Shown piece after piece: positions 37,857-54,588 of a stretch of 58,408 nt of DNA. The notes under the pieces were generated by a model. It did no database searches. It was not told the DNA's origin and was given only the letters and a program-made list of their open reading frames with translations. The translations under genes and the position numbers were made by a program. The stretch's first letter is position 1; each line of letters starts with the position of its first letter. This DNA is from Treponema sp. (lineage in GTDB: Bacteria; Spirochaetota; Spirochaetia; Treponematales; Breznakiellaceae): the NCBI GenBank assembly GCA_031276815.1, contig JAISMJ010000093.1, positions 1 to 58,408 of the forward strand, in the 5' to 3' direction.

Positions 37857-38290
37857 GTTTTTCCTCCTTGTATGTTCTCTCTCTCTGTTCCTGTAAGGTA
37901 TGAGAAATACATCGCTGATTATAACGTTTGTACGGTCATCGCGTTCCGGCGCGTCTTTGCAAGCCATTCCGCCCCGTCCCGCGCCGCGGGCGTCACCGTG
38001 TCCCTCTCCGCCTTCATAGACGGTTCCTCTGACATACAGGGCGTGAGCGCGTCACACAATAGATGGTCTGAACATGAATACCGGAGATCAAGAGGGGATA
38101 GCATACGGAATAGTGAACGGATTTCCATAACGAATTATGCCATATTCCGTACCTTTTGACAAGGAGAGAGAAGAGAGGGTCTAGGCATCCGTTTTCCCCT
38201 CATTATGGGGAATCGCCCGCTTTGTTACGGTATGACCGCGCTCACTATCTATGCAAGGAGCGGGCGCGTACGTCTCATCGCACGTCAGAT

Positions 38291-38740
38291 TGTCGACTAC
38301 ACGCCGTATGAAGTCGACTACGAGTCGCGTGAAGTCGACTACGCGCAGTATGAAGTCGACTACGAATAGCGTGAAGTCGACTACGTACAGCATGAAGTCG
38401 ACTACGCACAGTATGAAGTCGACTACGAGTCGAGTGAAGTCGACTACGAATAGCATGAAGTCGACTACGCACAGTATGAAGTCGACTACTAGTCGCGTGA
38501 AGTCGACTACGTGCAGTATGAAGTCGACTACTAGTCGTATGAAGTCGACTACGCGCAGTATGAAGTCGACTACGAATCGCGTGAAGTCGACTACGTGTAG
38601 TATGAAGTCGACTACGAGTCGCGTGTAGTCGACTACGCGCAGTATGTAGTCGACTACGAGTCGCGTGAAGTCGACTACGCGCTTCATGAAGTCGAATACG
38701 TGTAGTATGTAGTCGACTACGCGCAACAGATTGTCGACGC
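38291..38740. repeat. Intergenic tandem array 3: ~21 x 21 bp
   Basis: The unit is GAAGTCGACTAC plus 9 variable nt. The core AGTCGACT (extended to GTAGTCGACTAC in some units) is palindromic. Lies ~430 nt upstream of the guaB ATG and just past the terminator of the 39-54 kb operon. Confidence 0.88.
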
Positions 38741-39069
38741 TGTACTGTAGAGCGTTATCCGCTTTCATTGCGCCAAAAAGAACATGACGTCCGCGTTGTT
38801 TATTATGCGGATATATGTTTACCGGATGATGTAAAAAAGGTGTGCGTAAGGGCGCCGTTACCTTGTTGTGAAACATGGCGCGCAACATACGTGACAAAAA
38901 TGAACGTATAGGAAACATACTATACATCTCTGTTTCGTTGTATCCGCGCGATATGGCAATACATGGATTTTCTGTAAACACAAACAGAGACGTACAGGGG
39001 AAACAGCAGGCGGACATATTGAAGCAGGGAAACCCCATTGGATGCGGCGAAGAGCGGGTACTCATGCCG

Positions 39070-39139: not shown

Positions 39140-40849
39140 CTATTGTATGGTAAACGTTGATTCCGCCATGCGGCTGTTTTTGTACCATAGTTCTATGCGG
39201 TATGTTCCTCTGCGCCAATGTCCCGGCGTTGCGCCACCCCAGCCGGTAGTACGCTCCGTACCGCTGCCCGCGTTAATATAAAAGGAAGAACTAAAACTAT
39301 ACCCGTCCGGCGAAGATGTTCCGGTAGAGAGCGCGCCATTCGGATGAAAGATTTTTATATAAAGCTCATACGTTCTCGCGCTGGAAAGAAACGATTCATA
39401 CCTAATCTCCGTATACAAATAGGTTGACCGTGACGAGATAATAGCATCGCCGGGGTTATCCCCCTGATTGAATACCCGTATGCGGGTTATTGAAAAGGCG
39501 GGATATGTTGCCAAAAACCGGTTCGCCGTATTCGTAGCGTCCGCTAATTCACGTTGAGTAGTATCTAGTTGAGCGTTAGCGTTCTCCAAGTCATCGCGCA
39601 GCGTAGATACTTGAGTACGAATACCGGTTAGTTCGGTTTCAGCATCGCTTAATTGCGCGCGGACAGCGGTTAGTTCGGCTTCGGCATCGCGTAAGCGCGA
39701 CTGAAGGGCATACAATGCGCTTTCTTTTTCCGCTATCTCCGCGTATAAAAGATCGCCCTTACCATACCATTTTACCGCATACACGATACAAACAATGACG
39801 GCTGTTATAAGTGCGGTAATAAGAAGCGCGGCTATGCCTTTACTGATACGGACAGCGGCGTCATCACACGGTTGCTGAACATGCGGCTGCGAGGAGGGTA
39901 GGGCGGGAACGGGTTCTTTTTGGCGCGGCAGCCGTCCGTTTTTTTCAATCGTACACCACGGACACGCAGCCGCTCCGCCGGCATAGTAATGATTGGTACG
40001 GTTCACACAGAGCGTCAGACCGTTTAGGAGTCTTTCAAGCGCGGCATACCATGCGTCTCCTGAAGGCGTCTCTGCCGGTTCAGTACGCCCTTCAATAAAA
40101 GCCCCGCGGAATAACGTGTGTATTTCAGCCGGTAAAGAAGCGAACAGGGGCGCATACGCGGGTATATCAACGGTTATATCTGTGGGAGAAATGGAAGGAT
40201 GCGCTCCATTCATCAGCAAACGAAAAATCAGCGTCGCCAATGCCGCGTCATCCTGTTCTTTCGTACATACCGGCAGCGGTTCCCATGCTTTTTGTTCCCC
40301 CTGAAGCTCCGGCGTACTGATCGTTGCCGCGTGTGATTCACACGGGAACACGTTTCCGGTTTTGTCTGTGATATGAAAGGAATCCGCGCCGGTTACGGTA
40401 ATACGTCTGGTATCCGGATCAACGAGTATCTGTCCGGCGTGCAGGCGCCCGATAATCTGCCCTTCCTTATGCAAATCGCGAACCGCTCTCGCGGTGTTCT
40501 TTGCTATGGTAACGAAGAATGACCACGGTTTCCCCGCGCATGTATCGAAGATAGTCGATACGTTCTCTTTACCCGTTGCTTTAGGCATAACATAGCCGGC
40601 AAACGTCCACTGCGTAGGCTCGTATACCACATCAAGCGGCCATGCGTATTGTTTCATGTCAGGAAAACGCAGCGCGGTCATTGCAAGCAATTTCTGTTCT
40701 TTTTCCGCCGTCCGTGTATCCGGCTTGTATATCGCGGCTACCACGTCGCCATCTTCGACTACGGTGTAAAGGTCGCTCCCGTCTTCACTCGTAAACGGCG
40801 TATCCGCCGCCGTATAGATTTTACCTGACAGAGCGACATATATGGACAT
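39140..40849 (-). CDS. Membrane-anchored YegI-like protein-kinase-fold protein with a degenerate catalytic loop; extracytoplasmic coiled coil plus beta-rich domain
   Basis: 569 aa with VAAIYKP (VAIK-like Lys42), IIGRLHAGQILV (aligns to xxGD/HRD-L..xN-ILV with Arg at the catalytic Asp position), GADSFHI (DSF variant of DFG), CESHAATISTPELQG (TPE = APE motif) and CPWC. One TM helix (IAALLITALITAVIVCIVYAV). Then a heptad-rich LRDAEAELTAVRAQLSDAETELTGIRTQV and a ~120-aa beta-rich tail. Confidence 0.65.
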   Translation of the reverse strand: MSIYVALSGKIYTAADTPFTSEDGSDLYTVVEDGDVVAAIYKPDTRTAEKEQKLLAMTALRFPDMKQYAWPLDVVYEPTQWTFAGYVMPKATGKENVSTIFDTCAGKPWSFFVTIAKNTARAVRDLHKEGQIIGRLHAGQILVDPDTRRITVTGADSFHITDKTGNVFPCESHAATISTPELQGEQKAWEPLPVCTKEQDDAALATLIFRLLMNGAHPSISPTDITVDIPAYAPLFASLPAEIHTLFRGAFIEGRTEPAETPSGDAWYAALERLLNGLTLCVNRTNHYYAGGAAACPWCTIEKNGRLPRQKEPVPALPSSQPHVQQPCDDAAVRISKGIAALLITALITAVIVCIVYAVKWYGKGDLLYAEIAEKESALYALQSRLRDAEAELTAVRAQLSDAETELTGIRTQVSTLRDDLENANAQLDTTQRELADATNTANRFLATYPAFSITRIRVFNQGDNPGDAIISSRSTYLYTEIRYESFLSSARTYELYIKIFHPNGALSTGTSSPDGYSFSSSFYINAGSGTERTTGWGGATPGHWRRGTYRIELWYKNSRMAESTFTIQ

Positions 40850-40860
40850 ATACGTTTCCC

Positions 40861-41979
40861 TTATTCATACTGCTGTATCAGCGCTTCCAACTCGCGCTTA
40901 TGTAAGCCTGCGTTCTTATACGTCTCCAGAATCTTTGTAAGAACAAACGTATTTTTATGGAGATATTTCGCAACGGCTTGGAGAATATGGCGCATCTCTT
41001 CATATTCGCCGCTAACGATCCGCGCACATTCACCGCACATGGTCGCTATAGTTTCTTGTTTTGTCTTGTTGTTGTCTTCAAAGGATTTCAGAGCCGCTTC
41101 CATTTTTACTGAGTAGTTGCCTATGGCATCGGTGTACGCTTTTGGAAAGGATTGAATAGCGGCGCACTTAAAGGTCAGCGCATGTAAATTTGAGAGAATA
41201 GCGTCTATGTTCTTCATAAGTTCTTCATCGACCATACGGTTTTGAGCGAAAGAATCCTTAAAAGAAAGATGGATATCTTTAAGCAGCGCTTCACTCTCGC
41301 CGCAATAGCGAAGCGCTGCTGCGGAATAATCTAATTTAGAAGCGAATTGTTCAAAGCTGGTTTTAACGGTATGCGCCGCAACGCCGAGCGCATTAAACGC
41401 CGCTTCACAGCGCTTTTTTTCTGTAAGCAGGTGAGAGCACTCTTCTTTTTGGAGCGCTAGATAGGTTTTGATAGCTTCATTCACGTAATCCAGAGCGGCT
41501 GTCGTCCCATTCGCCTGTTTCTGAAAGCGTTCTTCTGTTTCGGAGATAGCGGATAACAGCGTTGCATTGATTTTTCTTATTTCGTGATCCGTGTCAATAT
41601 ACGCAAAATCGGCTTTATATTCCCATGCGGGCGAAGCGCTATCATCATATACAACAGGTGAAAAGACATGTTCCCGGATTTTTCCGGTAATACATGAAAT
41701 AATAACAAAAATTCCACTGAGAATCAGCACTGTCATACCGTTACTTTCAAGCAAGAGCGCAAGCGCGCACGAAGATACCGTTAACACAGCAAGCGGAATA
41801 TTTGCAAGATCAAAGAGTCTTGACAGGATAGGAGCGCGCGGAATTAAAAAAGTAACAATTTTTGAAAGAAGGGGCGCATGAGGCGCCGTCCGCTTTATGA
41901 TTGATAGGTAATCAAGAACTAATCCCGCAACTCCTGACAACACAACAACAATATAAGCAATAACTGCTATATATATCAT
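40861..41979 (-). CDS. Membrane protein (N-terminal TM helices) with an all-helical cytoplasmic region; operon member
   Basis: 372 aa. Hydrophobic segments lie in residues 1-110 and the rest is predicted helical. The ATG overlaps the upstream stop (ATGA at 41976-41979). Confidence 0.7.
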   Translation of the reverse strand: MIYIAVIAYIVVVLSGVAGLVLDYLSIIKRTAPHAPLLSKIVTFLIPRAPILSRLFDLANIPLAVLTVSSCALALLLESNGMTVLILSGIFVIISCITGKIREHVFSPVVYDDSASPAWEYKADFAYIDTDHEIRKINATLLSAISETEERFQKQANGTTAALDYVNEAIKTYLALQKEECSHLLTEKKRCEAAFNALGVAAHTVKTSFEQFASKLDYSAAALRYCGESEALLKDIHLSFKDSFAQNRMVDEELMKNIDAILSNLHALTFKCAAIQSFPKAYTDAIGNYSVKMEAALKSFEDNNKTKQETIATMCGECARIVSGEYEEMRHILQAVAKYLHKNTFVLTKILETYKNAGLHKRELEALIQQYE

Positions 41980-43991
41980 AATCCATCCTTATGTAACATG
42001 ACGTTCAATTCGCCCAGATTGTTGATATAACCGTTATCAGATATTTCACATGGCTTTATTATTTCAATCCTGTTTTCCCCGTCAGATTTTATTATATTTT
42101 TTGTATACAGCTCCCGTATATGTGTTACGTTATTATAATAATGCGGGTTTGGAAAGATATATTTTTTACCGCCTTTTCTGTTTGAAATCCATTTTGTTTC
42201 CGCAAAAGATTCGAGAAGGTTCTGTTTTGTTTTTATCTTAAAATCACCCACCAGATAATAAAACGTATCAAGCGGAAGTTTTGTCCCCGCCTTGGCTGCC
42301 GCCCATGCGTTAAATTCAGCAACAATAGCATCCGTACCGCCAGAATCGCCGGAAGAAGCGCGCTTCTTTTCATGAGCAGGGGCAGTTTCTATAGTATTCA
42401 AACGTCCGTCGATAGTATGTATACGATAATCAATACTTTCGATACTAGATTTAACCTCGTTTATACGTTGCTGAAGATCAAAGATTTGTACCGGCGCCTG
42501 TTCAACACGTTCCGCATCGCTTTGCAGTTTTTGCAGTTGCTCCGCCATTGCTTGAACAGATACAGCGCTGCTTTGCTCATACAGTGTAGCGAGTTGTTCA
42601 TAGGAAGATAATTTTGCATGGGCATCATTGAGTTTTTGGGTGAAATTAACATAACTCCGTATTTTATTCATAAAATTCGGAGCAAGAGTAAATTGTGTAA
42701 AATCATATACAGAATCGCACAGTCTATTCGTTGAATTCGAGGTTTCTGTGATTACCGCTTCTAGTTCCGCATTGGTTTTTCCAAGTTTTTTTAGTTCTTG
42801 GGAGAAAGAATCGTTTAGAGTATGTAAAGCTTCTATTGTATCACGCTCAAAGTCAATAGAAACAGCTTCGTTGAATGTTTCACAAATTGCAAAGAATTTA
42901 TCATAACTTGAACGTAAGTCATCAGCGTTTTTCTTGATTATAGTGTCAATAGAGGTAAAAGTACCGCTGATAGTATGTTCGAGCGAGTCCGTTATCCGTT
43001 CCAGATGGTGTAATTCAACAGAAAATGCATCGCTTTTATAGGCGGAAAGAAGCTGTTTTAGTTCCAATAAAAGGGCGGCATTTTTATTCATCGCGTTAAT
43101 GTCGACTTTTGTTTTGTCTGCAAGTTCGGTACATTTCGGCATTATAGCGTTAATATGTTCGCATATAACGCTCAAAGTACTATTCAGTTCGTTTATTTTT
43201 TTCAGAGCATCATTAAAGAAACCGGTAATGTTTTGCCATGTTATAACCTCCGTACCGCTTTGAAGCTTGATAAATTCATCTAATTTTGCCGTCATATCCG
43301 TTGTGCTTTGCAAAAGCATATCGCATCGTTTAGTATTCGTTGCTGAAAATATGTTTACAGCGGACAGTAGCCGGTTAGTGTCTTCCGATTTCAAGGCATT
43401 TAACACGGCGGGTCTCAACTCTTTTATCGTAATTAAGTCAAAGTTCGCAATTTTATCATACCAGCGCGTATATAAGGCATCGGTAAATAGCGCGACTTTG
43501 CTATCCGCGTGTCTTTTTAGCAACAGGATACATATAAAGCAAAAGGTATGTATCATAAACAAAAAAGACAACAAGCTGGTTTTCGTAGATGCCGCAATCA
43601 CTCCCGCATACATCACATACAATGAGGCTATAAACGGGATATGCATGAGAAAAAATACGTATGCTACAAATTTATCGCACTTTTCTTTATAGTTTGATAT
43701 ATATGCGTTTTGATTCACTTTCTTTCCAACTTTGGCGTCTGTACACATACGTCCTAATATTTCAATGATAAAATTGTTTTTCATGATGTTAGATTGTTTG
43801 TTTACAAAATCATTAAAATTGCTATTCATTTTAATAACGTTTTGATTTTTATCGATCACCGGCGCAAGTTTCAATCCTGAGAGATCGAGCAGTTCCTGTG
43901 TTGTTCTTGTCTTTTTAGAAAAATAAATAACCGGCAGTATATATAATAAAAGAAACCACAACGCATAGATAACAATTATTTGTTCTGACAT
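41976..43991 (-). CDS. Polytopic membrane / coiled-coil protein ending in the shared ~112-aa C-terminal domain (divergent copy)
   Basis: 671 aa. TM segments near residues 6-25 and 105-160, then a long helical region. The C-terminus reads EFNAWAA..GTKLP..FYYL....K.....L....ETKWISN..GGKKYIFPNP......I.ELY.......RIEIIKPCEIS.NGYINNLGEL. AAGGAG SD. Confidence 0.75.
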   Translation of the reverse strand: MSEQIIVIYALWFLLLYILPVIYFSKKTRTTQELLDLSGLKLAPVIDKNQNVIKMNSNFNDFVNKQSNIMKNNFIIEILGRMCTDAKVGKKVNQNAYISNYKEKCDKFVAYVFFLMHIPFIASLYVMYAGVIAASTKTSLLSFLFMIHTFCFICILLLKRHADSKVALFTDALYTRWYDKIANFDLITIKELRPAVLNALKSEDTNRLLSAVNIFSATNTKRCDMLLQSTTDMTAKLDEFIKLQSGTEVITWQNITGFFNDALKKINELNSTLSVICEHINAIMPKCTELADKTKVDINAMNKNAALLLELKQLLSAYKSDAFSVELHHLERITDSLEHTISGTFTSIDTIIKKNADDLRSSYDKFFAICETFNEAVSIDFERDTIEALHTLNDSFSQELKKLGKTNAELEAVITETSNSTNRLCDSVYDFTQFTLAPNFMNKIRSYVNFTQKLNDAHAKLSSYEQLATLYEQSSAVSVQAMAEQLQKLQSDAERVEQAPVQIFDLQQRINEVKSSIESIDYRIHTIDGRLNTIETAPAHEKKRASSGDSGGTDAIVAEFNAWAAAKAGTKLPLDTFYYLVGDFKIKTKQNLLESFAETKWISNRKGGKKYIFPNPHYYNNVTHIRELYTKNIIKSDGENRIEIIKPCEISDNGYINNLGELNVMLHKDGL

Positions 43992-44009: not shown

Positions 44010-45425
44010 TCACAATAATGTTAATTCTCCCGGATAATTGATAAAACCGCTGCCGGACATCTCGCAGGGTTCCGTTATTCTAATTTTATTCTGCCCTTTA
44101 GACCGTAACTTTGTTAGATCCATGTTATAAAGCTCCTTTATATCGGTCATTTGGTCAAAGGAATTTGGATTTGGAAAAAGATATTTTTTGCTACCGTTCT
44201 TATTTGAAATCCACTTAGTCTCCATTGCGGACGGTGTAAGAGGCTGCTCTCTTCTTACCCGCATATCATGTTCTAAATAATAAAATTCGTTGGGCAGTTT
44301 AGTTCCCGGGTTGGCTGCCCACGCATTAAAAGCGGAAATAGTAGTATCAGTTTTATTAACGGTGCTCATACTATTCGGCGGCTCACTGATTTTCTTGGGA
44401 AAAACCGGTTCCGCCATGTTTGCATTGTCTTCAAGGTTTTTCACACGGGTATTAATACTAGTTAGATGGCGTGTTGTTTTATCGGCAGCTTCGCTAATAC
44501 GTTGAATTTGTGCTGTTAATGTTCTAATTTCTAACGTGATGTTCTCTTGGTTTTGATTTGGGCGAGCAAACTCTGATTTTCTCATTGATTCCTCAATACT
44601 GTTGAGACGCGATTCAAGATTCAGAAGGCTGTTGTTAATAGTAGTATTGATTATAGATATATCGTTTATCAATTCTTTATTACTATTTTGTATATCATAT
44701 TCTACATGTTTTAGACCTACCTCAATAGTTTTGATACGTGACTCAATATTCGGAATCCATTTGTTAATAGTAGTAACCGTATGTCTTGTTTCTTTATTAC
44801 TATTCTGAATATCATATTCTACATCTTTTAGACGTTCCTCAATAGTTTTAATACATGCGTCAAGATTCACAAGTCTATTGTTAATAATATTATTGAGCGT
44901 AGATATGGTATTTTTTATATTGGAAATATTACTTTCTATCTTTTCCAATCGTTCCTCAATAGTATTACTATTGAGTGTAGCAGATACGGCATTTCTTGAT
45001 ATTTCTCTATTATTTTGGATATCATCTTCTATCTTCTTCAGGCGTTCCTCAAGTTCTTCATATTTTTTCAACTGTTTTACAGGCAGTATAGTTCTATGAG
45101 CATCAATGCTAGGCATTTCTTGCCCTAAAAGCATTGCCAGATATGATACGGTTTCAGCGGCTTTTTCCCATGTTACGCTGTTTTTATCCTGAAAATTTTG
45201 TATCAGTCCCGAGAATTCGAGAGTCTGTATTGTTTTTTCATGTTCCGATGCTTCCCTCACTCTATCGAAATATCCTGCATTAACGGCTTTAAGTAATAAA
45301 TTAACTTTTTCTTCGTATTCGCCCCCAAAGGCGCCCAACTGTTCTTTTATGCTGTCTTCAAAATCAGATTTTGATTTATCCTTTGATAGGGTTCTTATTT
45401 TAATCAGAATGTCCTGAAATGTCAT
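44010..45425 (-). CDS. Soluble coiled-coil repeat protein ending in the shared C-terminal domain
   Basis: 471 aa with no TM helix. Internal ~37-40-aa repeats (LK.VEYDIQNSNKE twice, LKKIEDDIQNNRE once). C-terminus AFNAWAANPGTKLPNEFYYLEHDMRVRREQ...ETKWISNKNGSKKYLFPNP...ELY...KIRITEPCEMSGSGFINYPGELTLL. Confidence 0.75.
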   Translation of the reverse strand: MTFQDILIKIRTLSKDKSKSDFEDSIKEQLGAFGGEYEEKVNLLLKAVNAGYFDRVREASEHEKTIQTLEFSGLIQNFQDKNSVTWEKAAETVSYLAMLLGQEMPSIDAHRTILPVKQLKKYEELEERLKKIEDDIQNNREISRNAVSATLNSNTIEERLEKIESNISNIKNTISTLNNIINNRLVNLDACIKTIEERLKDVEYDIQNSNKETRHTVTTINKWIPNIESRIKTIEVGLKHVEYDIQNSNKELINDISIINTTINNSLLNLESRLNSIEESMRKSEFARPNQNQENITLEIRTLTAQIQRISEAADKTTRHLTSINTRVKNLEDNANMAEPVFPKKISEPPNSMSTVNKTDTTISAFNAWAANPGTKLPNEFYYLEHDMRVRREQPLTPSAMETKWISNKNGSKKYLFPNPNSFDQMTDIKELYNMDLTKLRSKGQNKIRITEPCEMSGSGFINYPGELTLL

Positions 45426-45464: not shown

Positions 45465-46937
45465 CTAGAGTAATGTTAATTCTCCATGGTAGTTGATATA
45501 GCCGCTGCCGGACATTTCGCAGGGCTTTGTTATTGTGATTCTGTTTTGTCCTCTGGGTCTTAACTTTGTTAGATCCATGATATAAAGCTCACTTATATCG
45601 GTCATTTGATCAAAGAAATTAGGATTTGGGAAAAGATATTTCTTACCGGTCTTACTGGCGTCTTTATTTGAAATCCATCTAGTCTCTGTTGCAGACGGTG
45701 TAAGAGATTGCTCTCTTCTTACCCGCATATCATGTTCTAAATAATAGAAATTATCCGGCAGCCTGCTTATCGGATTACTTGCCCAAATATTAAAGGCAGA
45801 AACCGGATCGCTGGTAAAACCCGGCGTTTTTTCTGTGAGAGGCGAGAAGCTTTCCGGCTGTCTTTTATTATTTTTCAAATCTACGTTAATATCTCTAATA
45901 CAGGTATCAATATCCCAAACGCTCCTCTCTACTCCATCAAATCTTTCTTCAAGTTTTTCTTCAAGCTTTCGAATTTGATTCGGCGCTGTTTCAATATACG
46001 TCAGCGTTTTACCTTGATCTTTGTACATGATGAGCAAGGTATCCATTTTACTAGCTATCCCTTCTAATGCTTCTTGTGCGGCTTGGAGCCGTTTATTGTC
46101 GGCTGTAGATTTTATAAGAGATAGTATAGCTATGACAAGAGAGGCGGAAGCGATACTCCCTACCGCTATGAGCATGATCAGCAGAGCAAGAAATCTCTTT
46201 TCAGTATCCGCTACTTTACGTATATCAGCAACTACGGTATTAATTTTCTCAACGTTGGCTGTTACTGCCGTCCAATCTTTGTTTGTCTGGGCATTGCTGG
46301 CAGCAATATAGGACTCTGTACCAATTTTATACAACTCTTTATATTTTTTCTGAATTTTGCCTTCCACACCGTTAAGTTGTTTCTTAGCAGCCGCTAAAGC
46401 TGAAGAAGCAGCTTCAGCCATCTCTGTATCTGTCAGCGCACTGTCTATTGCCGTCATTGCGGCATCTAAAGCATTGCTCATTTCCGCAACAGTTTTTGCC
46501 GCTCCAATCTTTTCACGTCCTTCTTCCTTTATAGCAATAAGGTTCTTCCACTGATTTCCGGTGAAATCTTTCGCCGCTTTCTGTTTTCCAAAATAGTCAT
46601 GTAACGTATCTTGCGCCTCTTTTTTTCTTACATCAAGAATTGTTCCATAAATAGCATCTATCTCATTTTCTGCATTTGAGAGAGCTTTTTGTATCGCTTC
46701 ACTATCTTTTGCCTTGTCAATCGCATTCTTACCCTTTTCCCTTATGCCGGTAAGTTTTTTTTTATCAGATTCAGTAAAATCCTTTTCTGCGCCTCCTCCG
46801 ATATACGATTCCAACTCGGCTATTGCAGCTTCCTGTTTCTTGACTATATCATCAGTCCCTTCGGTTTCAGCGCCTGCCATCCATAAACATCCAAAAACAA
46901 GTACTAGAGCGAGGCTTGTAATTTTAGTCTTTTTCAT
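45465..46937 (-). CDS. Bitopic membrane protein: signal/lipobox, extracytoplasmic helical repeats, one TM helix, cytoplasmic coiled coil, shared C-terminal domain
   Basis: 490 aa. MKKTKITSLALVLVFGC (lipobox-like). A..I..A.T..E...AL..A...ID helical repeats. TM helix FLALLIMLIAVGSIASASLVIAILSLI. C-terminus AFNIWASNPISRLPDNFYYLEHDMRVRREQ...ETRWISNK...KKYLFPNP...ELY...RITITKPCEMSGSGYINYHGELTLL. Confidence 0.75.
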   Translation of the reverse strand: MKKTKITSLALVLVFGCLWMAGAETEGTDDIVKKQEAAIAELESYIGGGAEKDFTESDKKKLTGIREKGKNAIDKAKDSEAIQKALSNAENEIDAIYGTILDVRKKEAQDTLHDYFGKQKAAKDFTGNQWKNLIAIKEEGREKIGAAKTVAEMSNALDAAMTAIDSALTDTEMAEAASSALAAAKKQLNGVEGKIQKKYKELYKIGTESYIAASNAQTNKDWTAVTANVEKINTVVADIRKVADTEKRFLALLIMLIAVGSIASASLVIAILSLIKSTADNKRLQAAQEALEGIASKMDTLLIMYKDQGKTLTYIETAPNQIRKLEEKLEERFDGVERSVWDIDTCIRDINVDLKNNKRQPESFSPLTEKTPGFTSDPVSAFNIWASNPISRLPDNFYYLEHDMRVRREQSLTPSATETRWISNKDASKTGKKYLFPNPNFFDQMTDISELYIMDLTKLRPRGQNRITITKPCEMSGSGYINYHGELTLL

Positions 46938-46982: not shown

Positions 46983-49900
46983 TTATGATTTATATCCCGA
47001 ATTACTGAATTCATCAAGAAACACTTTAAGCATAACAATAAACGGAGGATCAAAACGATTTTCAGTTTGCAATACTCTTTCAATCTCTGTTCTTATTTGA
47101 TTCCAGAGCGTTTGTCTCTCTCTTTCAAACCATCCTCTTTGTATAATAGGCATATCTCCACGCGTTTTACTCGCAATTCGATTAAAGAAGTCCAAGAATT
47201 CACCGAATTCCGAAAGTTCCCTGTCTATCGTTATGCTTAATATATTTGGATTTATAAAAAATCCGTCATTATACACATCAACAAAGACGTCTTTTTTATA
47301 GCTATGCGCTACATCCCCCTGCGTTACGGTAATATTGCACCCGATAAATACTTCGGGATCGGCGAGTTTAATGGTGTTTTTTTGATTGCCGTTAGTATCC
47401 ACATCGCATATCATACCTATCGCCGTCTCGGTTTTTGCCGAGTCCGGAGAAAATTGATCAAGGAATCTGATTTGTATGCCATTGGGATATGTGGTGCTTA
47501 TCGTTTTCTCCGCTATAAGGTTTTGAGCTTCAGCATAAATAGTTGAACAGTATGCGCGTATCCAGTCCGTTAGTTTTGAACCTTTTCCAGACAGCCCAAG
47601 AACAATTTGCGTAATATCATTATCAATTTTCTTGTCAGGATCGTCCGAATTCAACAAAGCCGCAATAGCATTTGCTAAATAATATATTAACCCCGAATAC
47701 GCGATAAATACGCTGTGCTTGAAATTTTTATAAGCTTGTTTATCATCGCCTTCAAGACTATCAAGCCTATTCTTAAAAAGACTATAATATTCAAACAGAA
47801 CGGTCTCGATAAAATATTTAATTTTATCTCTTGAATATTCTGTATTTCTTCCTCCATATTCCAGCATGGTATGAATTCCATCTTCAATTCTATCGGTACG
47901 CACCACATCCATTACACTCTTTATTTCTAACAGTTTTTCAAGCGGAGCAACAAACATATCACGGGATGCAAAACGGATAGAGGTTTGGAAGACGTGTTTT
48001 GTTTTGATCCAGAGTGAAATATCGCTTGTATTTCCCCCTATATCAACGCAAAGAAAAATCGTCTGTCTTGAGTTTCTATTTCGGAAGTAAAAAGCCGCCG
48101 CAATACTTTCTGTAATAAGATTTCTCTCGTTGAATACAATATCAATACCGGTATCACTGCGGAGTCCTGTAATAATGGCGTTAAGACTGGTACCGAAATC
48201 TGTTTTTGTCCCCTGACTAAACGCAGTTGGATACGAGAAAAACCAGTTTATTTTCCGCACGCCTTTTTCCGCCGCATTATAAACTATGTGGGTCAATAAC
48301 TGATTGAGATACTTGCCGGCATACGAGAGATTGGTTTCCCATTTGATATTGGTAAGAAGCCTATCGCGTCTCCCTTCGGTACTGTTTAATATTCTAAAAT
48401 TTTCAAAGTTATGCCAGAAAATACGCCCCGTTTCAAAAATAGTAGGCGACGCGGAATCCCGTGTCGTATCCATTTTCTCATAGGTAGTTGCATAGCCGTT
48501 CTGCCTTAAATAGTGCGGGTCTATGAAATAGTTCTCTACATTTCTTTTATCACCCGTATTGCTGAGAATCACCATATCATTTTTTATCTCACGTTTTTGA
48601 GGTTCACTGCTTCCGTCCACCCAATGATATTCCGTGTTTAATTGTATAAAAGCAGGGAGAGACCCGCTATTGTCGGTGGTATAAAATGCCGTCGATGTTG
48701 TTGTGCCAAAATCAAACCCTATGTTCCATACTATACTTCCCGGCTGAACTTTTTTAGGCTCAGCAAGAAAAACAGCCCCCATATAGATAGAACTATGTGC
48801 GCTTATTTTTTGTTTTAACTTTAATGCAACGGGAAGCGCTCTGTATCGCCTGTAATATATATCATTAACTACGCTGCTGACAGTGGAAAGTTTTTGTTGT
48901 CCTAACAGGTAATTATTAGTTGTAAAAAAAGGTTCGATTTCCAATACTGGAATTCCTCTGAAGTTAGGCTCTACGCAAAAGAAATTATAGCGCTGCCATG
49001 TATTTTCGCCGTTTCTGTCAAGTATTTCCGCATACGGCCACGCCGCCCAGAACGGCACATAGTTTTTATCAAAAATGAAGCATATTCCTGTTCCCTCACT
49101 GCGGTCATTGTCGTCAGAATCTGCGCCGCTTTTAATCTTCTTAATGGTATATTCTTTTGTTACAGAATGTTTTCCCATGGCGTCGCTCAATGCGAGTCCC
49201 AGCGTAATGGTTACTTTTTCATTGTCAGCGCGGATAGAAAGCATATCATTAATCTGCTCCATGGTATACCATTCAAGAAGTTTTTCATGTATGGGCCATA
49301 TAACCTCATAATCATCAATAGAACGATTCGGCAGCGTGTGAAAAACAGCCTCGCTACCTTTATTAATCATTACCATCGAGTCACCAAGCAGGTCGTTTTC
49401 ATACATAAGCGTAACGCCATCTATTGTTTTGCCTGAATACTCCTGTATATTTGCCGCATGTATCTGATTATACAACATAGTATCGGTAATAAAGATAGTT
49501 GACGCCTGCTGGCTTGAAGAACTGATCCCGCAAATAGTAACGCCGATGAGGGCTACTCTTTGTCCACGCGTACCGGCTAACAGGAAGGGCAGCTCTACCG
49601 TGCGGTTGCTGGTAATGCTTACTTTGTCAAACAGGTCATACACGCTTTCTACTTCGCCGCTGCTCGTTAGGGAGATATCATGATTCGGCGTTACTTTGCC
49701 AATATCTGCGATAAACTTTTCCACCAACTTTTGAAGAGCTTTAATGATACTCCGCTGATTTCGCGTGGCTTCTTTTGTAATACAAGCTTTTAATTTATCC
49801 AAAAACAATTTCAGCGCATACTTCGCATCCCGGTTCATAGATTGGCTTTGGTTTTTAAAGTAATTATCGGGACTTAAAAATTTTCCGCTTTCGTCAATTA

Positions 49901-52001
49901 TTGTCGGAGCCATCGTATACAGCTTTGTCTTGATCGCAGCCGAATACGAATAGGCAGGACAAACAATCGTATTATGGGCAAGAAAAGCAATGACTTCATC
50001 TTTTTCTCCATCGGACAATGAAACACAGCACGCATTAATCCAGTTTGGATTATCAAAAATATAACTATTAGGAATAAGCGTTTCCTTCATGGTATTTAAG
50101 AATTCTCCGTCGCCCACGGTTCCCAGCCGCAATACTCGTAGCTGCAACCCTGCACGTTCATATAGATTGAGTTTTCTAAGCGCAAGAAGGGTAAGCAGTC
50201 CGCACCATTGATTGTACGCGGTCTTGTTTAATGACGCGAACTTTGGTTCGACTAGCGTCAGCTCATTCACAATAAATATTGACCATGGAGAAGGAATCGA
50301 CACATCGCTTGCAACGAATTTATCCCCCTGAACATTAGGAAGCCCATCAGCAATATTTATAAGCAGCGTAGGCTCGCTTTTTGACCACAGCTTATTCTGA
50401 TCGGCATCGGGCTTGATAAACGTTACGCCGTTTTCTTTTGACAAATAAGGGACAATGACAAAGTCGTCCCTCGTTGTTTTAGCTTTTCCGCCGAAAAGTC
50501 TCAGTTCCTGTTTGGTAACTAAGTCTCCTAGCGTAACAAATAAAGAGGGAAAACGCTTGCCGCTGTTGCCTACAGGCAACGGTTTTTTACCGGCTATATC
50601 GCTATAAATTTTAGCGGAAAGTTTTTGATTTGTATCGTTATATACCAACTCCTTGAAATTATCAATTTCACCATTTTCAACCGGCATATTATCAAAAAGT
50701 GTAGGATACCCCGCATTAAAGAGCTTGACTCTGGCGTCAGGCGTCCATTTCATCCTACCGGTGTTTTGGTCAATGTCATCTAAATTCTTTTTATGGAGAT
50801 CGTACATCCACTTTACGAAAAGCTCTAAATAACCGCGGAGATTTTCATATATGAAATTCTGATTCTCATCTTTATCGGTCTGTATGCCCCCGTCATAGTT
50901 TTTTTCCCACCTGCCGGCAGCCGTCCCATTTTTTAGTTCCCCATAGAGTATTTTATTGTAAAATACGGCGATCTTCATAAGTTTCTGCATCTTCAAGGGC
51001 AAATCCGAATCAATATCCTGAATCATCTTCCATGTATAATAGTATTCGCTGCCGCTCGCTTCTCTTTGCGCTGTGATGATTTTACTGTCTTGCCGGTTAT
51101 TGTTTTCTTTTACAAAATCAATGATGGACATCGCCGCAAAAAGTTCGATGGGATGCGTTTTATTGCGCTGATTATCAGAACCCCGCGAGGCAACTTCGTT
51201 TGAAAAGTTTATCTCAGGCTCGCCTATAACATATAACGCATCCGTCTTTTTATACTGTTCCTGAACATAGTAATAATACAGCGCGGTCTTTGCTTTTACC
51301 TGAAAATTATTTGAATTGGGTTGCAGTCTTCCTTCTTCCGCTATTTCTCCAATAGCCTTGAAGTAAGGCGTCAATATAATAGCGGCGAATTTAAAATCAG
51401 CCTCTCTTTTGTGCGCTTTAAGATCGTCAAGCACGACAGGTATTGCGGATGCGCCTGTTCCTCCAAATATCGATCCCATGACAACGACAAAATCGTTTGC
51501 GTTTATTTCCGTTTTAAATTGCCGCCAGATTTCATCATGGCTCAAGATATTCTCAACAACCAGCGTTCCTATGGACGTATGACCATAAAAGCCTTGATTA
51601 AATTCAGCGTCTATTTCATCATCCGTATAAAGGAAGCGAATAAACGTATCATCATCGCTATCTCTGTATTGCGGTATCTTAAAAGCCTCGCTTATACTTT
51701 TCTTTTCATCCTTGTAAAGACTTATATTGGTCGACGGACTTATTGATTCAACGCTTATGAGACCAAGTTCATTACCCGCCGCACTGAGCGCATTATAGAA
51801 TCGTTGATACGAACTTAATACGACGTTTGTATGTTTCAGATTCCCATTTGAAACATCCGCATCAATGGTCATAATCCGTATGACGTCAATGTGGCTTGAG
51901 CCTAAATTTCCCTTAAAAGCGCCGCTTGCGGCGAGATGAATAACGGCTGTTACGAGTTTATGACCCGTTCCGCCTATCCCAATAATATGAAGTTTTGACA
52001 T
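46983..52001 (-). CDS. 1672-aa protein: N-terminal tubulin/FtsZ-like GTPase motifs, ~650-aa unassigned middle region, C-terminal actin/Hsp70 (ASKHA)-like ATPase motifs
   Basis: N-terminal motifs: IIGIGGTGHK (aa 6-15; GIGGTG at nt 51963-51980), NQGFYGHTSIG (aa 135-145) and GSIFGGTGASA (aa 176-186, nt 51444-51476; compare the tubulin signature GGGTGSG). C-terminal motifs: IGFDFGTTTS (D1097-S1103, nt 48693-48713, phosphate-1 like), VDIGGNTSD (D1320-D1327, nt 48021-48044, phosphate-2 like) and IVLGLSGKGS (G1469, nt 47580-47597, adenosine-motif like). AAGGAG SD. Confidence 0.7.
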   Translation of the reverse strand: MSKLHIIGIGGTGHKLVTAVIHLAASGAFKGNLGSSHIDVIRIMTIDADVSNGNLKHTNVVLSSYQRFYNALSAAGNELGLISVESISPSTNISLYKDEKKSISEAFKIPQYRDSDDDTFIRFLYTDDEIDAEFNQGFYGHTSIGTLVVENILSHDEIWRQFKTEINANDFVVVMGSIFGGTGASAIPVVLDDLKAHKREADFKFAAIILTPYFKAIGEIAEEGRLQPNSNNFQVKAKTALYYYYVQEQYKKTDALYVIGEPEINFSNEVASRGSDNQRNKTHPIELFAAMSIIDFVKENNNRQDSKIITAQREASGSEYYYTWKMIQDIDSDLPLKMQKLMKIAVFYNKILYGELKNGTAAGRWEKNYDGGIQTDKDENQNFIYENLRGYLELFVKWMYDLHKKNLDDIDQNTGRMKWTPDARVKLFNAGYPTLFDNMPVENGEIDNFKELVYNDTNQKLSAKIYSDIAGKKPLPVGNSGKRFPSLFVTLGDLVTKQELRLFGGKAKTTRDDFVIVPYLSKENGVTFIKPDADQNKLWSKSEPTLLINIADGLPNVQGDKFVASDVSIPSPWSIFIVNELTLVEPKFASLNKTAYNQWCGLLTLLALRKLNLYERAGLQLRVLRLGTVGDGEFLNTMKETLIPNSYIFDNPNWINACCVSLSDGEKDEVIAFLAHNTIVCPAYSYSAAIKTKLYTMAPTIIDESGKFLSPDNYFKNQSQSMNRDAKYALKLFLDKLKACITKEATRNQRSIIKALQKLVEKFIADIGKVTPNHDISLTSSGEVESVYDLFDKVSITSNRTVELPFLLAGTRGQRVALIGVTICGISSSSQQASTIFITDTMLYNQIHAANIQEYSGKTIDGVTLMYENDLLGDSMVMINKGSEAVFHTLPNRSIDDYEVIWPIHEKLLEWYTMEQINDMLSIRADNEKVTITLGLALSDAMGKHSVTKEYTIKKIKSGADSDDNDRSEGTGICFIFDKNYVPFWAAWPYAEILDRNGENTWQRYNFFCVEPNFRGIPVLEIEPFFTTNNYLLGQQKLSTVSSVVNDIYYRRYRALPVALKLKQKISAHSSIYMGAVFLAEPKKVQPGSIVWNIGFDFGTTTSTAFYTTDNSGSLPAFIQLNTEYHWVDGSSEPQKREIKNDMVILSNTGDKRNVENYFIDPHYLRQNGYATTYEKMDTTRDSASPTIFETGRIFWHNFENFRILNSTEGRRDRLLTNIKWETNLSYAGKYLNQLLTHIVYNAAEKGVRKINWFFSYPTAFSQGTKTDFGTSLNAIITGLRSDTGIDIVFNERNLITESIAAAFYFRNRNSRQTIFLCVDIGGNTSDISLWIKTKHVFQTSIRFASRDMFVAPLEKLLEIKSVMDVVRTDRIEDGIHTMLEYGGRNTEYSRDKIKYFIETVLFEYYSLFKNRLDSLEGDDKQAYKNFKHSVFIAYSGLIYYLANAIAALLNSDDPDKKIDNDITQIVLGLSGKGSKLTDWIRAYCSTIYAEAQNLIAEKTISTTYPNGIQIRFLDQFSPDSAKTETAIGMICDVDTNGNQKNTIKLADPEVFIGCNITVTQGDVAHSYKKDVFVDVYNDGFFINPNILSITIDRELSEFGEFLDFFNRIASKTRGDMPIIQRGWFERERQTLWNQIRTEIERVLQTENRFDPPFIVMLKVFLDEFSNSGYKS

Positions 52002-52104: not shown

Positions 52105-52587
52105 TCACTTCCGGTAGGTAAACCAGAATGCCCGTGCATACGCGGGCGTTACAAAAAGCGCGCCTGTTATGAAAGATACCGGAAAAGCAACCGCGTGAAG
52201 TGCGATAAGTACTCCAAACGCCGCAGCATCAAGACCGAATCCAATCGTATATACAATGGGCAGAATGACCATAAACAAAAGAGTTATAAAAAAACCCATA
52301 TAGAACTGCATTTTTTTTGAAGCGGCATTCGCTCCCCCTAACGCGGCGGGAATAATTATTACACAGAGCGCATGTATTATAATCGCGATGATGACGCTTA
52401 GAATCATACAATCCCGTCCGTTTTCCTCCCATATATATACGCCGAAAGATTTTTCTCCTATAACAATAAATAGGGCGTTAAAATTTTTCGGATCAATAGT
52501 AATAATGTACAGTATAAATGCCCCAATCGGCAACAAAATCAACCATGGCAATGCTTTAAGTGAATCTTTCACATAAGTTCCAAACAT
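52105..52587 (-). CDS. Small polytopic membrane protein (about 4 TM helices); operon member
   Basis: 160 aa from the ATG at 52587, which is preceded by GGAGGAG. The track extension to 52683 lacks an SD and adds a non-hydrophobic leader. Confidence 0.65.
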   Translation of the reverse strand: MFGTYVKDSLKALPWLILLPIGAFILYIITIDPKNFNALFIVIGEKSFGVYIWEENGRDCMILSVIIAIIIHALCVIIIPAALGGANAASKKMQFYMGFFITLLFMVILPIVYTIGFGLDAAAFGVLIALHAVAFPVSFITGALFVTPAYARAFWFTYRK

Positions 52588-52696
52588 AATCTTTCTCCTC
52601 CAAAATAATATGCGAGGGGTTCCGCAATAAACCCCTCGTGTAAGAACGTACAGCGCTCTACCGTCCGTATACGCTTCCGTCAAACGCCGGTTCTCA

Positions 52697-54334
52697 TTAG
52701 TTTTTTCTCACAAGGTACAAAACGCCGGAATACACCTCGTTATTGGCGTTTCGTATCTTGTTAAACGCTTCTTTTATATAGCCATAAATGGTAGTAAGAT
52801 GCAATACTTTGATCTGTCCGCCCGCGGCAACGCTTGCTTCAAGTTCTTCAATATCAGAAGCACTTCTATCGTAAACCCATGCGGGGATTTTGCCGTGGGA
52901 CCTCACCGTATACCCTATCTTATAGTACCCTTGTATGAGATTTTTGTTTTTAGTTTCAATGAGAAGGTATAGATAGTCAGTACCGACTTCGGCGTCTACG
53001 CTGGCTTCCAGTTCATCAGGCGCGACGTCGACCGCCGCCGTTACGATAGTTCCAACGGGTCTCGCGTACGGTTCAAACGCCGATGGTTCGCCGCGTGTAT
53101 TTTTTCCCCCGTCAAAGTATTCTACGCGCACATCCACGGAGTATTCAAATTCCGTTATATCCCCTTTTTCAACGGGCAGCGCGGCTATGTACCTCGAACC
53201 GCTATCACCGATTGTAAGATAGGCTTCCGCATCAGAGCGCTGCAGAACATACTTGACGCTCCGCTCTTCATCTTCACCGCTTTTAGGCGGCGTATCGCGT
53301 TCCGCCCAACTAAGTAAGGTTGTCTTGCGAAGATTAACTTTTTTATATTTATAATCGCCGGAATTAAACACGGTTTCTCTTCTTGTGAATTCTTGACCAG
53401 ACGGCAGCAGGAGATATGGCTTACCCTGATACAACGCATCGTTTATAAAGAGAGAGAGTTCAAAATCAGTCCCTTTCATCATGCCTTTAATTTCGAAATC
53501 TCTCGCCAGCCCTTCGCTGTACGCTTGTACGCTGCCGGTATCTCCGACTATAAAAATAAAAAACGTCGAAGACCCGTTCTTTACCGGAATGTTCTTTTGA
53601 TTATTACTCCCGGACACATCATTGATATTTCCATTAAATGATGACGTTACGGCAAAAATCGCGCCTGACATGCCCCGTTCAAAGGCGTCTTGAAACAACT
53701 GATGAAAATACAGGTGCGCTTTATTATTCTCGTAGAGATCGGTAATAACGATATTCAGACAGTTTTGCGTTATTTCCGGCGCGGTATAGACCGAGTCTCT
53801 GATATAGTCAGCCACCGACCCAAACGGTTGACCTTCTCCATCAGAGTTTTTCACGGAATATACCACCTGCCTGTTGGTACCGGGTCCGTAACTGTACTTG
53901 TTATAACCGTAGAACTGGGGCTTTCTCAGTTCGTTTAATACTACCGGGGAGAACGGTATCTCGCATATCACCAATCCGCCGAATTCGTAATACAGCGATT
54001 CCGCCTGAGAAGCCCATAGTTGTCCGCCAACCGTCCATACGCTCTCTATCGCCTTTGTATAGGTGGATTCTTCAACGTGTCCGGGAACAACCATACGCCC
54101 GATCGCATCTACTTTGAACTGATCATTCTGGGTAAACCCCTGCATCGACTCTGTTCTATCAAAAAAGTAGCGCACCTGCTTTACCGGTGAAGGCGGTCCC
54201 GGGGGGACGTCTTCCGCCGGACGAGGAGTTTCCGCAACATAGCAAGGACCGAGCCTGTTACATGCCGCAACCATACACGCCGCAACAAGACACGCGCCTA
54301 TTCGGAATATATATGCTCTTTTTGCCATTTTCAT
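52697..54334 (-). CDS. Lipoprotein with a tentative vWA-like (MIDAS-containing) domain; first gene of the operon
   Basis: 545 aa. Signal plus lipobox (LVAACMVAAC). VRYFFDRTESM (D59-x-T-x-S63, nt 54146-54160) resembles the MIDAS DxSxS on a beta strand. CLNIVITDLYEN (D199) resembles the distal MIDAS Asp strand. Confidence 0.45.
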   Translation of the reverse strand: MKMAKRAYIFRIGACLVAACMVAACNRLGPCYVAETPRPAEDVPPGPPSPVKQVRYFFDRTESMQGFTQNDQFKVDAIGRMVVPGHVEESTYTKAIESVWTVGGQLWASQAESLYYEFGGLVICEIPFSPVVLNELRKPQFYGYNKYSYGPGTNRQVVYSVKNSDGEGQPFGSVADYIRDSVYTAPEITQNCLNIVITDLYENNKAHLYFHQLFQDAFERGMSGAIFAVTSSFNGNINDVSGSNNQKNIPVKNGSSTFFIFIVGDTGSVQAYSEGLARDFEIKGMMKGTDFELSLFINDALYQGKPYLLLPSGQEFTRRETVFNSGDYKYKKVNLRKTTLLSWAERDTPPKSGEDEERSVKYVLQRSDAEAYLTIGDSGSRYIAALPVEKGDITEFEYSVDVRVEYFDGGKNTRGEPSAFEPYARPVGTIVTAAVDVAPDELEASVDAEVGTDYLYLLIETKNKNLIQGYYKIGYTVRSHGKIPAWVYDRSASDIEELEASVAAGGQIKVLHLTTIYGYIKEAFNKIRNANNEVYSGVLYLVRKN

Positions 54335-54373
54335 AACGATATTTTCCTTTTTTTGTAAATACTACTATCTATA

Positions 54374-54402
54374 ATAATACACTAGCCGGAACTTTTACGC
54401 AA
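54374..54402 (-). promoter_or_regulatory. Candidate sigma70-type promoter for the operon
   Basis: Minus strand reads TTGCGT (54397-54402), 17 nt, TATTAT (54374-54379), ~40 nt upstream of the ATG at 54334. Confidence 0.3.
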
Positions 54403-54404
54403 GG

Positions 54405-54512
54405 GCTTTTATGCAAAGATTGTTAGCTTTTATGCAAAGGCTTGCGATATAGGGCGTCCGCTATGTGTAGTAGAAGTTCCGCTACCTGTAGTAGAAAGTC
54501 CGCTGTACACGA
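54405..54512. promoter_or_regulatory. Short direct repeats with 21-bp phasing upstream of the operon
   Basis: GCTTTTATGCAAAG occurs at 54405 and 54426. TCCGCT-N3-TGTAGTAGAA occurs at 54457 and 54478, with a partial third copy at 54499. Successive copies are exactly 21 bp apart. Confidence 0.5.
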
Positions 54513-54588
54513 TATTCATTCACGCCCGCGTAGCGCACGCCGGTCTTGCCTGCAAGTGGCTTTGCCGTTTCCACGCCTCTTGCTCGTT

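Follow-up and report, generated by a model that had tools for sequence, protein, structure and literature searches.

Results

A tubulin-like and an actin/Hsp70-like module in one polypeptide

The stretch of DNA analysed here (the window) comprises 58,408 nucleotides from Treponema sp. (NCBI GenBank assembly GCA_031276815.1, contig JAISMJ010000093.1, positions 1 to 58,408 of the forward strand; GTDB lineage Bacteria; Spirochaetota; Spirochaetia; Treponematales; Breznakiellaceae). We describe a gene in this window that fuses a tubulin-like module to an actin/Hsp70-like module, together with the operon to which it belongs. The gene occupies 46983..52001 on the minus strand (read from 52001 to 46983), the strand on which all genes of the operon described below also lie; it starts with ATG and continues through 1672 codons and a stop without interruption. 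A plus-strand reading of the same interval was ruled out, its translation being riddled with stops. An earlier note on this DNA, made from the letters alone, had proposed a single polypeptide of 1672 amino acids (aa) carrying the motif sets of both folds, and the continuous open reading frame (ORF) and the motifs bear this out; the note had overlooked that the gene lies on the minus strand, that its two parts are separate adjacent genes in most relatives, and that it belongs to a conserved membrane-linked operon. In this ORF a tubulin GTPase module, a family-specific middle region and an ATPase module of the ASKHA (actin/Hsp70-like) superfamily are genuinely fused, and the fusion is conserved.

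The tubulin/FtsZ-like module, probably of the FtsZl1/Tubulin_2 type, spans aa 1 to ~495 (50517..52001) and was delimited with an AlphaFold2 model and Foldseek. It contains, exactly where the earlier note had placed them, the T1 loop GIGGTG (aa 8-13; 51963..51980), the T3-like loop NQGFYGHTSIG (aa 135-145; 51567..51599) and the T4 tubulin-signature loop GSIFGGTGASA (aa 176-186; 51444..51476). Residues G10, G11, T12 and G13 of T1 are conserved to at least 90%. Within the fused clade the T3-like loop never varies at G137, F138, G140, T142 and G145, and the pattern GF.G...IG is conserved in 82 tubulin-like modules. The signature loop is invariant, namely at G176, S177, F179, G180, G181, G183, A184 and S185 in an alignment of 38 full-length relatives. 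Across the 82 modules the T1, T3, T4 and T5 loops are at least 90% conserved, and a T2-like DxD..NG motif as well as Q278, N280, H283 and E286 around the core helix are conserved too.

The model of aa 1-530, built from 55 aligned sequences, has a predicted local distance difference test score (pLDDT) of 87.2 and a predicted template modelling score (pTM) of 0.91. When it was compared with the PDB by Foldseek, the top 50 matches were all tubulin, FtsZ, CetZ or BtubA, and 164 matches had E ≤ 1e-3. The best match was CetZ (3zid; E 5e-5, probability 1.0), with whose signature loop the family profile also aligns T4; the top 50 had probability 1.0 and E-values from 5e-5 to 3.5e-4, over 265-371 aligned columns with one exception. 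The TM-scores against the PDB matches are modest (0.25-0.45), from which we conclude that the module is strongly diverged.

Profile databases place the module less firmly. Against Pfam Tubulin (PF00091) the window protein scores 21.7 bits (E 2.7e-4), below the gathering cut-off of 33, and two homologues bear a precomputed PF00091 match. Against Tubulin_2 (PF13809) it reaches 15.2 bits (E 0.013) where the gathering cut-off is 27 bits, while split orthologues, in which the tubulin-like module is a gene of its own, score 36.6 and 28.7. The Tubulin_2 kinship that the earlier note had considered is thus above the cut-off for the split orthologues and below it for the window protein. Because they pass the gathering score, the split tubulin genes belong to the FtsZl1 family, and the tubulin module of the fused protein is probably a short-form branch of FtsZl1/Tubulin_2.

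A linker at aa ~496-545 (50367..50516) forms the fusion junction. Nowhere is the alignment more variable, and the structure of the linker is predicted with low confidence (pLDDT <55 across residues 1-70 of a model of aa 500-1672). The family-specific middle region follows at aa ~546-1085 (48747..50366); it is mixed alpha/beta, then beta-rich, and is confidently folded in the model. A PDB search with a profile of 28 sequences gave no relative for it, Pfam gave no match, and the BFVD matches ranking under the ASKHA ones were not significant. Of the ~650 residues between the two motif sets that the earlier note could not match, aa ~200-495 belong to the tubulin-like module, and aa ~546-1085 are the family-specific region. 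The middle region is conserved in the split relatives, as the N-terminal half of an ASKHA gene of ~1100 aa.

The ASKHA module, recognised by Foldseek and by the family profile, covers aa ~1086-1672 (46986..48746). It contains the phosphate-1 motif DFGTTTS (aa 1097-1103; 48693..48713), the phosphate-2 motif DIGGNTSD (aa 1320-1327; 48021..48044), which aligns with DnaK, and the adenosine motif LGLSGKGS (aa 1468-1475; 47577..47600); the first two lie exactly where the earlier note had read them, and the third is one residue off its reading. Phosphate-2 is preceded by TESIAAA (aa 1297-1303), a motif of the Hsp70/MreB 'NEPTAAA' type with an invariant E1298. Among the 38 full-length relatives D1097, F1098, G1099, T1100, T1101, D1320, I1321, G1322, G1323, D1327, G1469, G1472, K1473 and G1474 are invariant. 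Of the 64 sequences in the wider set of fused and split relatives (~20-25% identity), 63 retain D1097, F1098, G1099, E1298, D1320, G1322, D1327, G1472 and K1523; for G1469 and G1474 the conservation is at least 89%.

For the model of aa 500-1672 (pLDDT 85, pTM 0.77), the top 50 Foldseek matches in the PDB were all Hsp70 nucleotide-binding domains, MreB, ParM, actin or Arp. Their E-values ranged from 2.3e-8 (the best, an Hsp70 nucleotide-binding domain) to 3e-6, and the TM-score normalised to the target reached 0.53 for MreB. The top BFVD matches of the module were viral Hsp70 homologues (best E 6.6e-11). Searched against PDB sequences, the family profile aligned with DnaK, MreB and FtsA at phosphate-2 and with CetZ at T4 (E 0.01-0.04). 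The window protein matched NCBIfam FtsA with E 0.0045, below the curated threshold, and every ASKHA family in Pfam remained below threshold for it; SrfB was absent from the Pfam matches of the window protein (E up to 1) and of the split relatives (E up to 0.01). Together, the separate structural comparisons of the two parts substantiate both fold calls of the earlier note, and the models indicate that each module has diverged strongly within its superfamily.

Fused in a termite-gut clade, mostly split elsewhere

The fused protein has 57 homologues, most of them full-length (1630-1760 aa), from independent assemblies. Where the source is named, nearly all come from metagenome-assembled genomes or genomes of termite-gut Spirochaetes, the others from bins that bear the names Tannerella and Syntrophomonadaceae. 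When one genome was scanned for each GTDB species, at least 549 stretches encoding relatives emerged, and 79 loci were fetched. The same fused architecture was present in 10 other fetched loci, while outside the termite clade all fetched loci (~60) carry a split form, in taxa that include Cyanobacteria, Acidobacteriota, Poribacteria, Negativicutes and Clostridia.

In the split form a Tubulin_2/FtsZl1-type gene of ~500 aa is followed, after a median gap of ~18 nt, by a gene of ~1100 aa that encodes the middle region and the ASKHA module. WP_013325769 and WP_013325770 of Gloeothece PCC 7822 are one such pair. The split tubulin-like proteins align with aa 1 to ~400 of the window protein (473 at most), and the alignment of the split ASKHA proteins begins at aa ~515-568 and reaches the end. 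The split junction coincides with the variable linker of low pLDDT. The earlier note had asked whether the halves occur as separate genes elsewhere and had called a fusion unusual, and both points were borne out: the halves are adjacent genes in the ~60 loci, and of the best 150 among 1554 matches obtained with aa 1-500 as a phmmer query against 1.84 billion cluster representatives, ~135 were stand-alone proteins (440-560 aa) and ~7 were full-length fusions. A profile search with the ASKHA module in a set of 5.8 billion proteins returned termite-clade fragments only.

One further fusion, P0108, is a C-terminally truncated protein of 1341 aa with tubulin-like, middle and ASKHA parts. In its ASKHA half it shares ~40% identity with split proteins of cyanobacteria, and this proximity to the split cyanobacterial genes points to a second fusion, independent of that in the termite-gut clade. 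The fusion thus arose in the termite-gut clade and apparently once again in a cyanobacterial-type lineage.

The operon in the window

In the window the gene order on the minus strand is U2, U1, the fused gene, d1, d2, d3, d4 and possibly d5. U2 (52697..54334), two genes upstream of the fused gene, encodes a predicted lipoprotein of 545 aa with an N-terminal signal sequence and an invariant lipobox cysteine (Cys25); among 34 orthologues the motifs D59-x-T-x-S63-M-x-G-F and VTD199L are conserved. It has no relative in Pfam or the PDB. These motifs (DxTxS...VTDL) resemble the metal ion-dependent adhesion site of a vWA domain, yet this assignment is no more than a guess from motifs, as no vWA match was obtained with the profile against the PDB or with Pfam (34 members, E up to 1). 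U1 (52105..52683) encodes a small membrane protein with 3-4 predicted transmembrane (TM) helices; translation probably begins at the ATG at 52590, so that the protein would have ~161 aa.

Downstream of the fused gene, d1 (45465..46937) encodes a protein with a signal peptide, a helical region, a TM segment, a coiled coil and a conserved C-terminal domain of ~115 aa; it is paralogous with d2 (58% identity over 169 aa) and with d3. The product of d2 (44010..45425) is a cytoplasmic coiled-coil protein with 39-aa repeats and the d1-type C-terminal domain, and its database matches were of the generic coiled-coil kind only; its coiled-coil region contains ~2.5 copies of a 117-nt (39-aa) repeat at 44673-44967. 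The d3 protein (41976..43991) has 3 TM segments, a long coiled coil and the d1-type C-terminal domain, and d3 orthologues are present in every termite-clade locus. The start of d4 (40861..41979) overlaps the d3 stop by 4 nt, and its product has 3 TM segments and a coiled coil. As homologues of MotA or ZorA, d3 and d4 were rejected, the hhalign comparisons not being significant (E 0.014-0.04, over short stretches); the layout alone is alike.

The possible last gene of the cassette, d5 (39140..40849), encodes a globular N-terminus, a TM segment, a coiled coil and a beta-rich C-terminus. Its membership is uncertain: it is weakly similar to the C-terminus of a d4-type gene at another locus (L004; E 3e-8), and its guanine-plus-cytosine (GC) content is 0.51. 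A reading of d5 as a protein kinase found no match in Pfam or the PDB. U1, the fused gene and d1-d4 have a GC content of 0.36-0.43, against 0.51-0.58 downstream. Over the whole window the GC content is uneven (0.37 at 2-4 kb, 0.42-0.44 at 28-34 kb and 0.36-0.41 at 42-52 kb; 0.51-0.58 in the other parts), which suggests several horizontally acquired blocks.

The 254 nt upstream of U2 (54335-54588, minus strand) contain direct repeats, namely a 21-nt unit present 2.3 times at 54456-54504 and CTTTGCATAAAAGC occurring twice at ~54400-54440; these are possible regulator binding sites. A sigma-54 promoter that would tie the operon to the adjacent gene for a sigma-54-type response regulator (54589-55965) was sought and rejected: the 254-nt gap contains none, and across the window such matches are no commoner than expected by chance. 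Between the U2 stop and the probable U1 start, at 52613-52638 (minus strand), a strong GC-rich stem-loop of 10 pairs is followed by a T-rich tail, possibly an internal terminator or attenuator that divides the lipoprotein gene from the remaining operon. Just beyond the operon, at 38292-38725, lies a tandem array of ~20 copies of a ~21-bp unit (Tandem Repeats Finder periods 42 and 63; 81-85% matches). It is overlapped by a minus-strand ORF of 294 aa (38181-39065), whose translation shows VVDF(I/T)(L/R)R repeats and matched nothing in the databases; the array is probably a non-coding repeat array or encodes a repeat protein. The sole RNA gene of the window is a tRNA-Thr(CGT) at 22952-23024 (minus strand).

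A conserved membrane-linked operon across relatives

Clustering of all ORFs of the loci revealed a conserved gene order. Position 1 is held by U2 (~470 aa), a lipoprotein with an invariant lipobox Cys and the DxTxSMxGF and VTDL motifs, position 2 by U1 (~160 aa; 3-4 TM helices), and positions 3 and 4 by the tubulin-like gene (~500 aa in split relatives) and the middle-plus-ASKHA gene (~1100 aa in split relatives). Position 5 is taken by 'c1', present as 1-6 paralogues in which N-terminal TM segment(s) and a coiled coil precede a conserved C-terminal domain of ~120 aa. The U2 family was found in 60 of 84 loci, and in ~70 loci the tubulin gene is immediately preceded by a U1 orthologue (153-209 aa); the termite-type and the general type of U1 are related by hhalign (E 0.0017). 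U2 is inverted, divergent from the U1-tubulin-ASKHA genes, in nine cyanobacterial loci (L013, L014, L016, L023, L035, L041, L046, L049 and L055), and is co-directional in other phyla. At L023, L055, L072 and L041 (cyanobacterial), c1 occurs downstream of the ASKHA gene as 3-6 tandem paralogues of 300-690 aa with variable N-terminal parts, an amplification that recalls families of receptors or adaptors undergoing diversification.

Extra stator-like genes, a ZorA/ZorB-like (MotAB-type) pair, extend the operon in Acidobacteriota, Poribacteria and some Clostridia. The ZorA-like protein has 3 TM segments and a long coiled-coil tail, with weak matches to MotA_ExbB and matches to ZorA with E-values down to 1.9e-11; its partner is of the MotB/OmpA type (OmpA 1e-10, ZorB 6.7e-16). 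The pair is sometimes followed by a 2-TM protein or by a K+-channel-like protein, the latter in acidobacterial and clostridial versions of the operon; at L020 (18765-20609), and likewise at L054, L056, L063 and L070, this is a multi-TM protein of ~600 aa with a K+-channel pore domain (Ion_trans_2, E 4e-12).

The flanking genes vary from locus to locus. The operon is carried by a mobilisable Gloeothece plasmid and by Picosynechococcus plasmids, and it is also present in Arthrospira and Microcystis genomes. In RefSeq the tubulin gene of the plasmid copies is labelled 'tubulin-like doman-containing protein' and all others, including the ASKHA gene, 'hypothetical protein'. No match was found in 50,697 phage genome records.

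Discussion

The proposed role and the evidence that bears on it

We regard the fused or paired NTPases as the cytoplasmic core of a membrane operon that would form an envelope-linked switch or assembly, with an accessory and possibly defensive role; this is the best explanation of the whole, and we give it a probability of roughly 60%. Since the two NTPases form a single protein in one or two lineages and are encoded side by side elsewhere, they are likely to be one physically associated unit, an argument of the Rosetta-stone type that the second fusion strengthens; from fusion and adjacency we infer direct contact between the modules. This unit may dock on the cytoplasmic tails of its membrane partners, which consist of coiled coils and C-terminal domains, and at the membrane it would then turn a signal derived from the envelope into a conformational switch or higher-order assembly that depends on GTP and ATP. 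A proton-driven ZorAB-like stator might, in many relatives, relay the envelope signal to the unit. The coupled GTP/ATP-dependent assembly or switching that the earlier note had proposed is plausible on these grounds. Patchy distribution, carriage on plasmids, anomalous GC content and the Zorya-like module lead us to favour an accessory role, possibly in anti-phage defence or other conflict, over that of a housekeeping cytoskeleton, so that our best guess is an envelope-anchored GTP-/ATP-driven switch or assembly module, possibly for defence.

Several observations weigh against this interpretation. In FtsZ and tubulin, GTP hydrolysis upon polymerisation depends on the T7 'synergy' loop, whose acidic residue activates it in the neighbouring subunit. 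In the 82-sequence alignment no D or E is conserved after the core helix (aa 284-298), only R313 and W324 being conserved there, which makes polymerisation-coupled GTPase activity doubtful. As far as the alignment can tell, this would argue against hydrolysis coupled to polymerisation in the classical FtsZ manner and would still be compatible with assembly. The window operon contains no detectable ZorAB- or MotAB-like genes, the ZorA matches there being noise at the level of coiled coils. The likeness between the termite and the general type of C-terminal domain is only marginal (hhalign P 0.14, then 0.008 with cleaner alignments), and a hidden Markov model search between them was negative. 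Also, no recurrent effector emerged when 70 variable downstream proteins were compared with Pfam, no family being present in more than 2 loci; no constant nuclease, protease or toxin is recognisable in the operon, and no PADLOC model matches the core proteins.

A bolder version of the same idea is a composite machine in which both cytoskeletal folds form a hetero-assembly on TM coiled-coil receptors, driven in many bacteria by a ZorAB-like motor, and which would represent an apparatus of a new class, serving envelope surveillance (immunity) or membrane remodelling. We put it forward tentatively, the odds being against it in this complete form.

Alternative readings

Among the alternatives, a housekeeping or morphogenetic cytoskeleton, in which the modules polymerise alone or together at the membrane and thereby shape the envelope or position a structure, fares best, although we consider it unlikely. 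Both folds are typical of cytomotive filament proteins and MreB is among the best structural matches, every partner is membrane-associated or coiled-coil as cytoskeletal tethers are, membrane remodelling is favoured in the FtsZl1 literature (PMC2875224), and the lack of a constant toxic effector fits such a role as well. The patchy distribution, the plasmid copies and the variable genomic contexts, however, are at odds with it, as are the anomalous GC content in the window, the absence of a conserved T7 catalytic loop from the alignment and the occurrence in relatives of a ZorAB-like module typical of a sensing or defence motor; moreover, the TESIAAA motif of the ASKHA module is just as Hsp70-like.

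Another alternative is a chaperone-client pair, in which an Hsp70-like ASKHA remodeller, not itself co-polymerising, would use ATP to act on the tubulin-like GTPase or on the coiled-coil partners by loading, disassembling or resetting them, the fusion serving as a tether. Hsp70 nucleotide-binding domains and viral Hsp70 homologues do give the best Foldseek E-values in the PDB and BFVD, TESIAAA and DIGGNTSD align with DnaK, and HSP70 and tubulin serve as alternative modules in GTPase-centred conflict systems (PMC7159879). Yet a chaperone proper is hard to reconcile with a protein that has no PF00012 match and ends with the ASKHA module, no substrate-binding domain lying beyond it, and whose middle region of ~540 aa is unlike any part of Hsp70; nor did Pfam scans of the operon proteins, in the window and in the split relatives, detect a DnaJ or GrpE co-chaperone gene. 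We judge this pair somewhat less probable still than the cytoskeleton.

An artefact, be it Gly-rich motifs arising by chance or an assembly or frameshift error joining two genes, both of which the earlier note had allowed for, can practically be discarded: all Pfam and NCBIfam matches of the window protein are under curated thresholds and the halves are separate genes in most relatives, but the high-confidence models match the expected folds only, the motif residues are invariant in 38 full-length relatives and kept in 64-82 wider ones, and the same continuous architecture recurs in the 57 homologues from many independent assemblies as well as in the 10 other fetched loci.

Significance

Cytoskeletons rest on two pillars, the tubulin-fold and the actin-fold NTPases, and to our knowledge these have been described neither in one polypeptide nor as an obligate operon pair outside the divisome. 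In full-text literature searches we found neither a fusion of tubulin and ASKHA modules nor an obligate operon pair of the two described. As the tubulin family FtsZl1 is already known, it is the ASKHA partnership, the fusion and the definition of the operon that appear to be new. The two modules are encoded by neighbouring genes elsewhere and fused here, which marks them as likely working partners; the fusion is thus a 'Rosetta stone' for a partnership overlooked by sequence annotation. This partnership provides a functional handle on FtsZl1, a family described in 2010 on which we found no later experimental characterisation.

The operon is widespread, with 1554 cluster representatives matching the tubulin module. 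Picosynechococcus is a genetically tractable cyanobacterial genus. Given this breadth, the Picosynechococcus plasmids and the copies in Arthrospira and Microcystis genomes, the function of the operon is a directly testable question. The link to a Zorya-like stator in many lineages suggests a new output module for such motors. If the composite machine were real, the apparatus would exist in more than 1000 protein clusters from many phyla, with the termite-gut fusion as its natural single-chain version.

Comparison with known systems

FtsZ and FtsA are the obvious precedent for a tubulin-fold GTPase and an actin-fold ATPase that cooperate at the membrane, as separate proteins that make contact through a short C-terminal peptide. 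The proteins described here differ from that pair in being divergent non-divisome paralogues with an extra domain of ~540 aa and, in the window, in being covalently fused.

The closest relatives of the tubulin module are those of FtsZl1 (Tubulin_2, PF13809), described as 'FtsZ-like 1' by Makarova and Koonin (2010), who proposed a role in membrane remodelling (PMC2875224). As in that family, the GTPase domain is divergent, with T1-T5 loops and poorly recognisable T6-T7; the genes exist beside conventional division genes and do not replace them, their operons are rich in membrane-associated proteins including the OmpA/MotB type, and the distribution is patchy, with cyanobacterial clades. Classical FtsZl1 proteins, however, measure ~1000-1100 aa and carry both a coiled coil and a helical C-terminal domain (PMC2875224), whereas the module described here extends only to aa ~495, lacks a coiled coil and is followed by, or fused to, an ASKHA protein of ~1100 aa. 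Two FtsZl1 partners, the vWA protein and a diverged P-loop GTPase, were undetected in the operon, and OmpA/MotB proteins were present in some split relatives only and not in the window. The neighbourhood table of Makarova and Koonin does contain one DnaK-like neighbour of 1626 aa, amb2961, without discussion of an ASKHA partner (PMC2875224). This COG0443 (DnaK/HSP70) protein ends the long-form FtsZl1 operon amb2957-amb2961 of Magnetospirillum magneticum AMB-1 (PMC2875224, Additional file 5), which hints that large ASKHA proteins accompany other FtsZl1 branches too.

Kaur, Burroughs, Iyer and Aravind (2020) described DO-GTPase/GAP1-N2 GTPase-centric conflict systems that recruit either tubulin or HSP70 plus GrpE, as non-overlapping themes (PMC7159879). 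Those systems are likewise multi-gene and often membrane-proximal, contain tubulin- or HSP70-superfamily proteins that are presumed to form NTP-dependent assemblies, and are interpreted as regulated conflict systems (PMC7159879). Here, in contrast, the one or two TRAFAC DO-GTPases and the GAP1 that define them are absent: there is no Pfam GTPase match, no core operon family has a Walker A motif, from which the absence of DO-GTPases follows, and the two folds are obligate neighbours or fused.

In the anti-phage system Zorya, ZorAB is a proton-driven 5:2 motor with a long ZorA tail that signals to soluble effectors (Hu et al. 2024, PMC11946911). The ZorB-like and long-tailed, 3-TM ZorA-like genes of many split relatives recall this design, and by analogy a membrane motor would signal to soluble cytoplasmic partners here as well. 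ZorC, ZorD and ZorE were found in no locus, and the window itself has no detectable ZorAB, d3 and d4 mimicking only the layout of 3 TM segments plus a tail; in place of the Zorya effectors, the soluble partners of this operon are the tubulin-like and ASKHA proteins.

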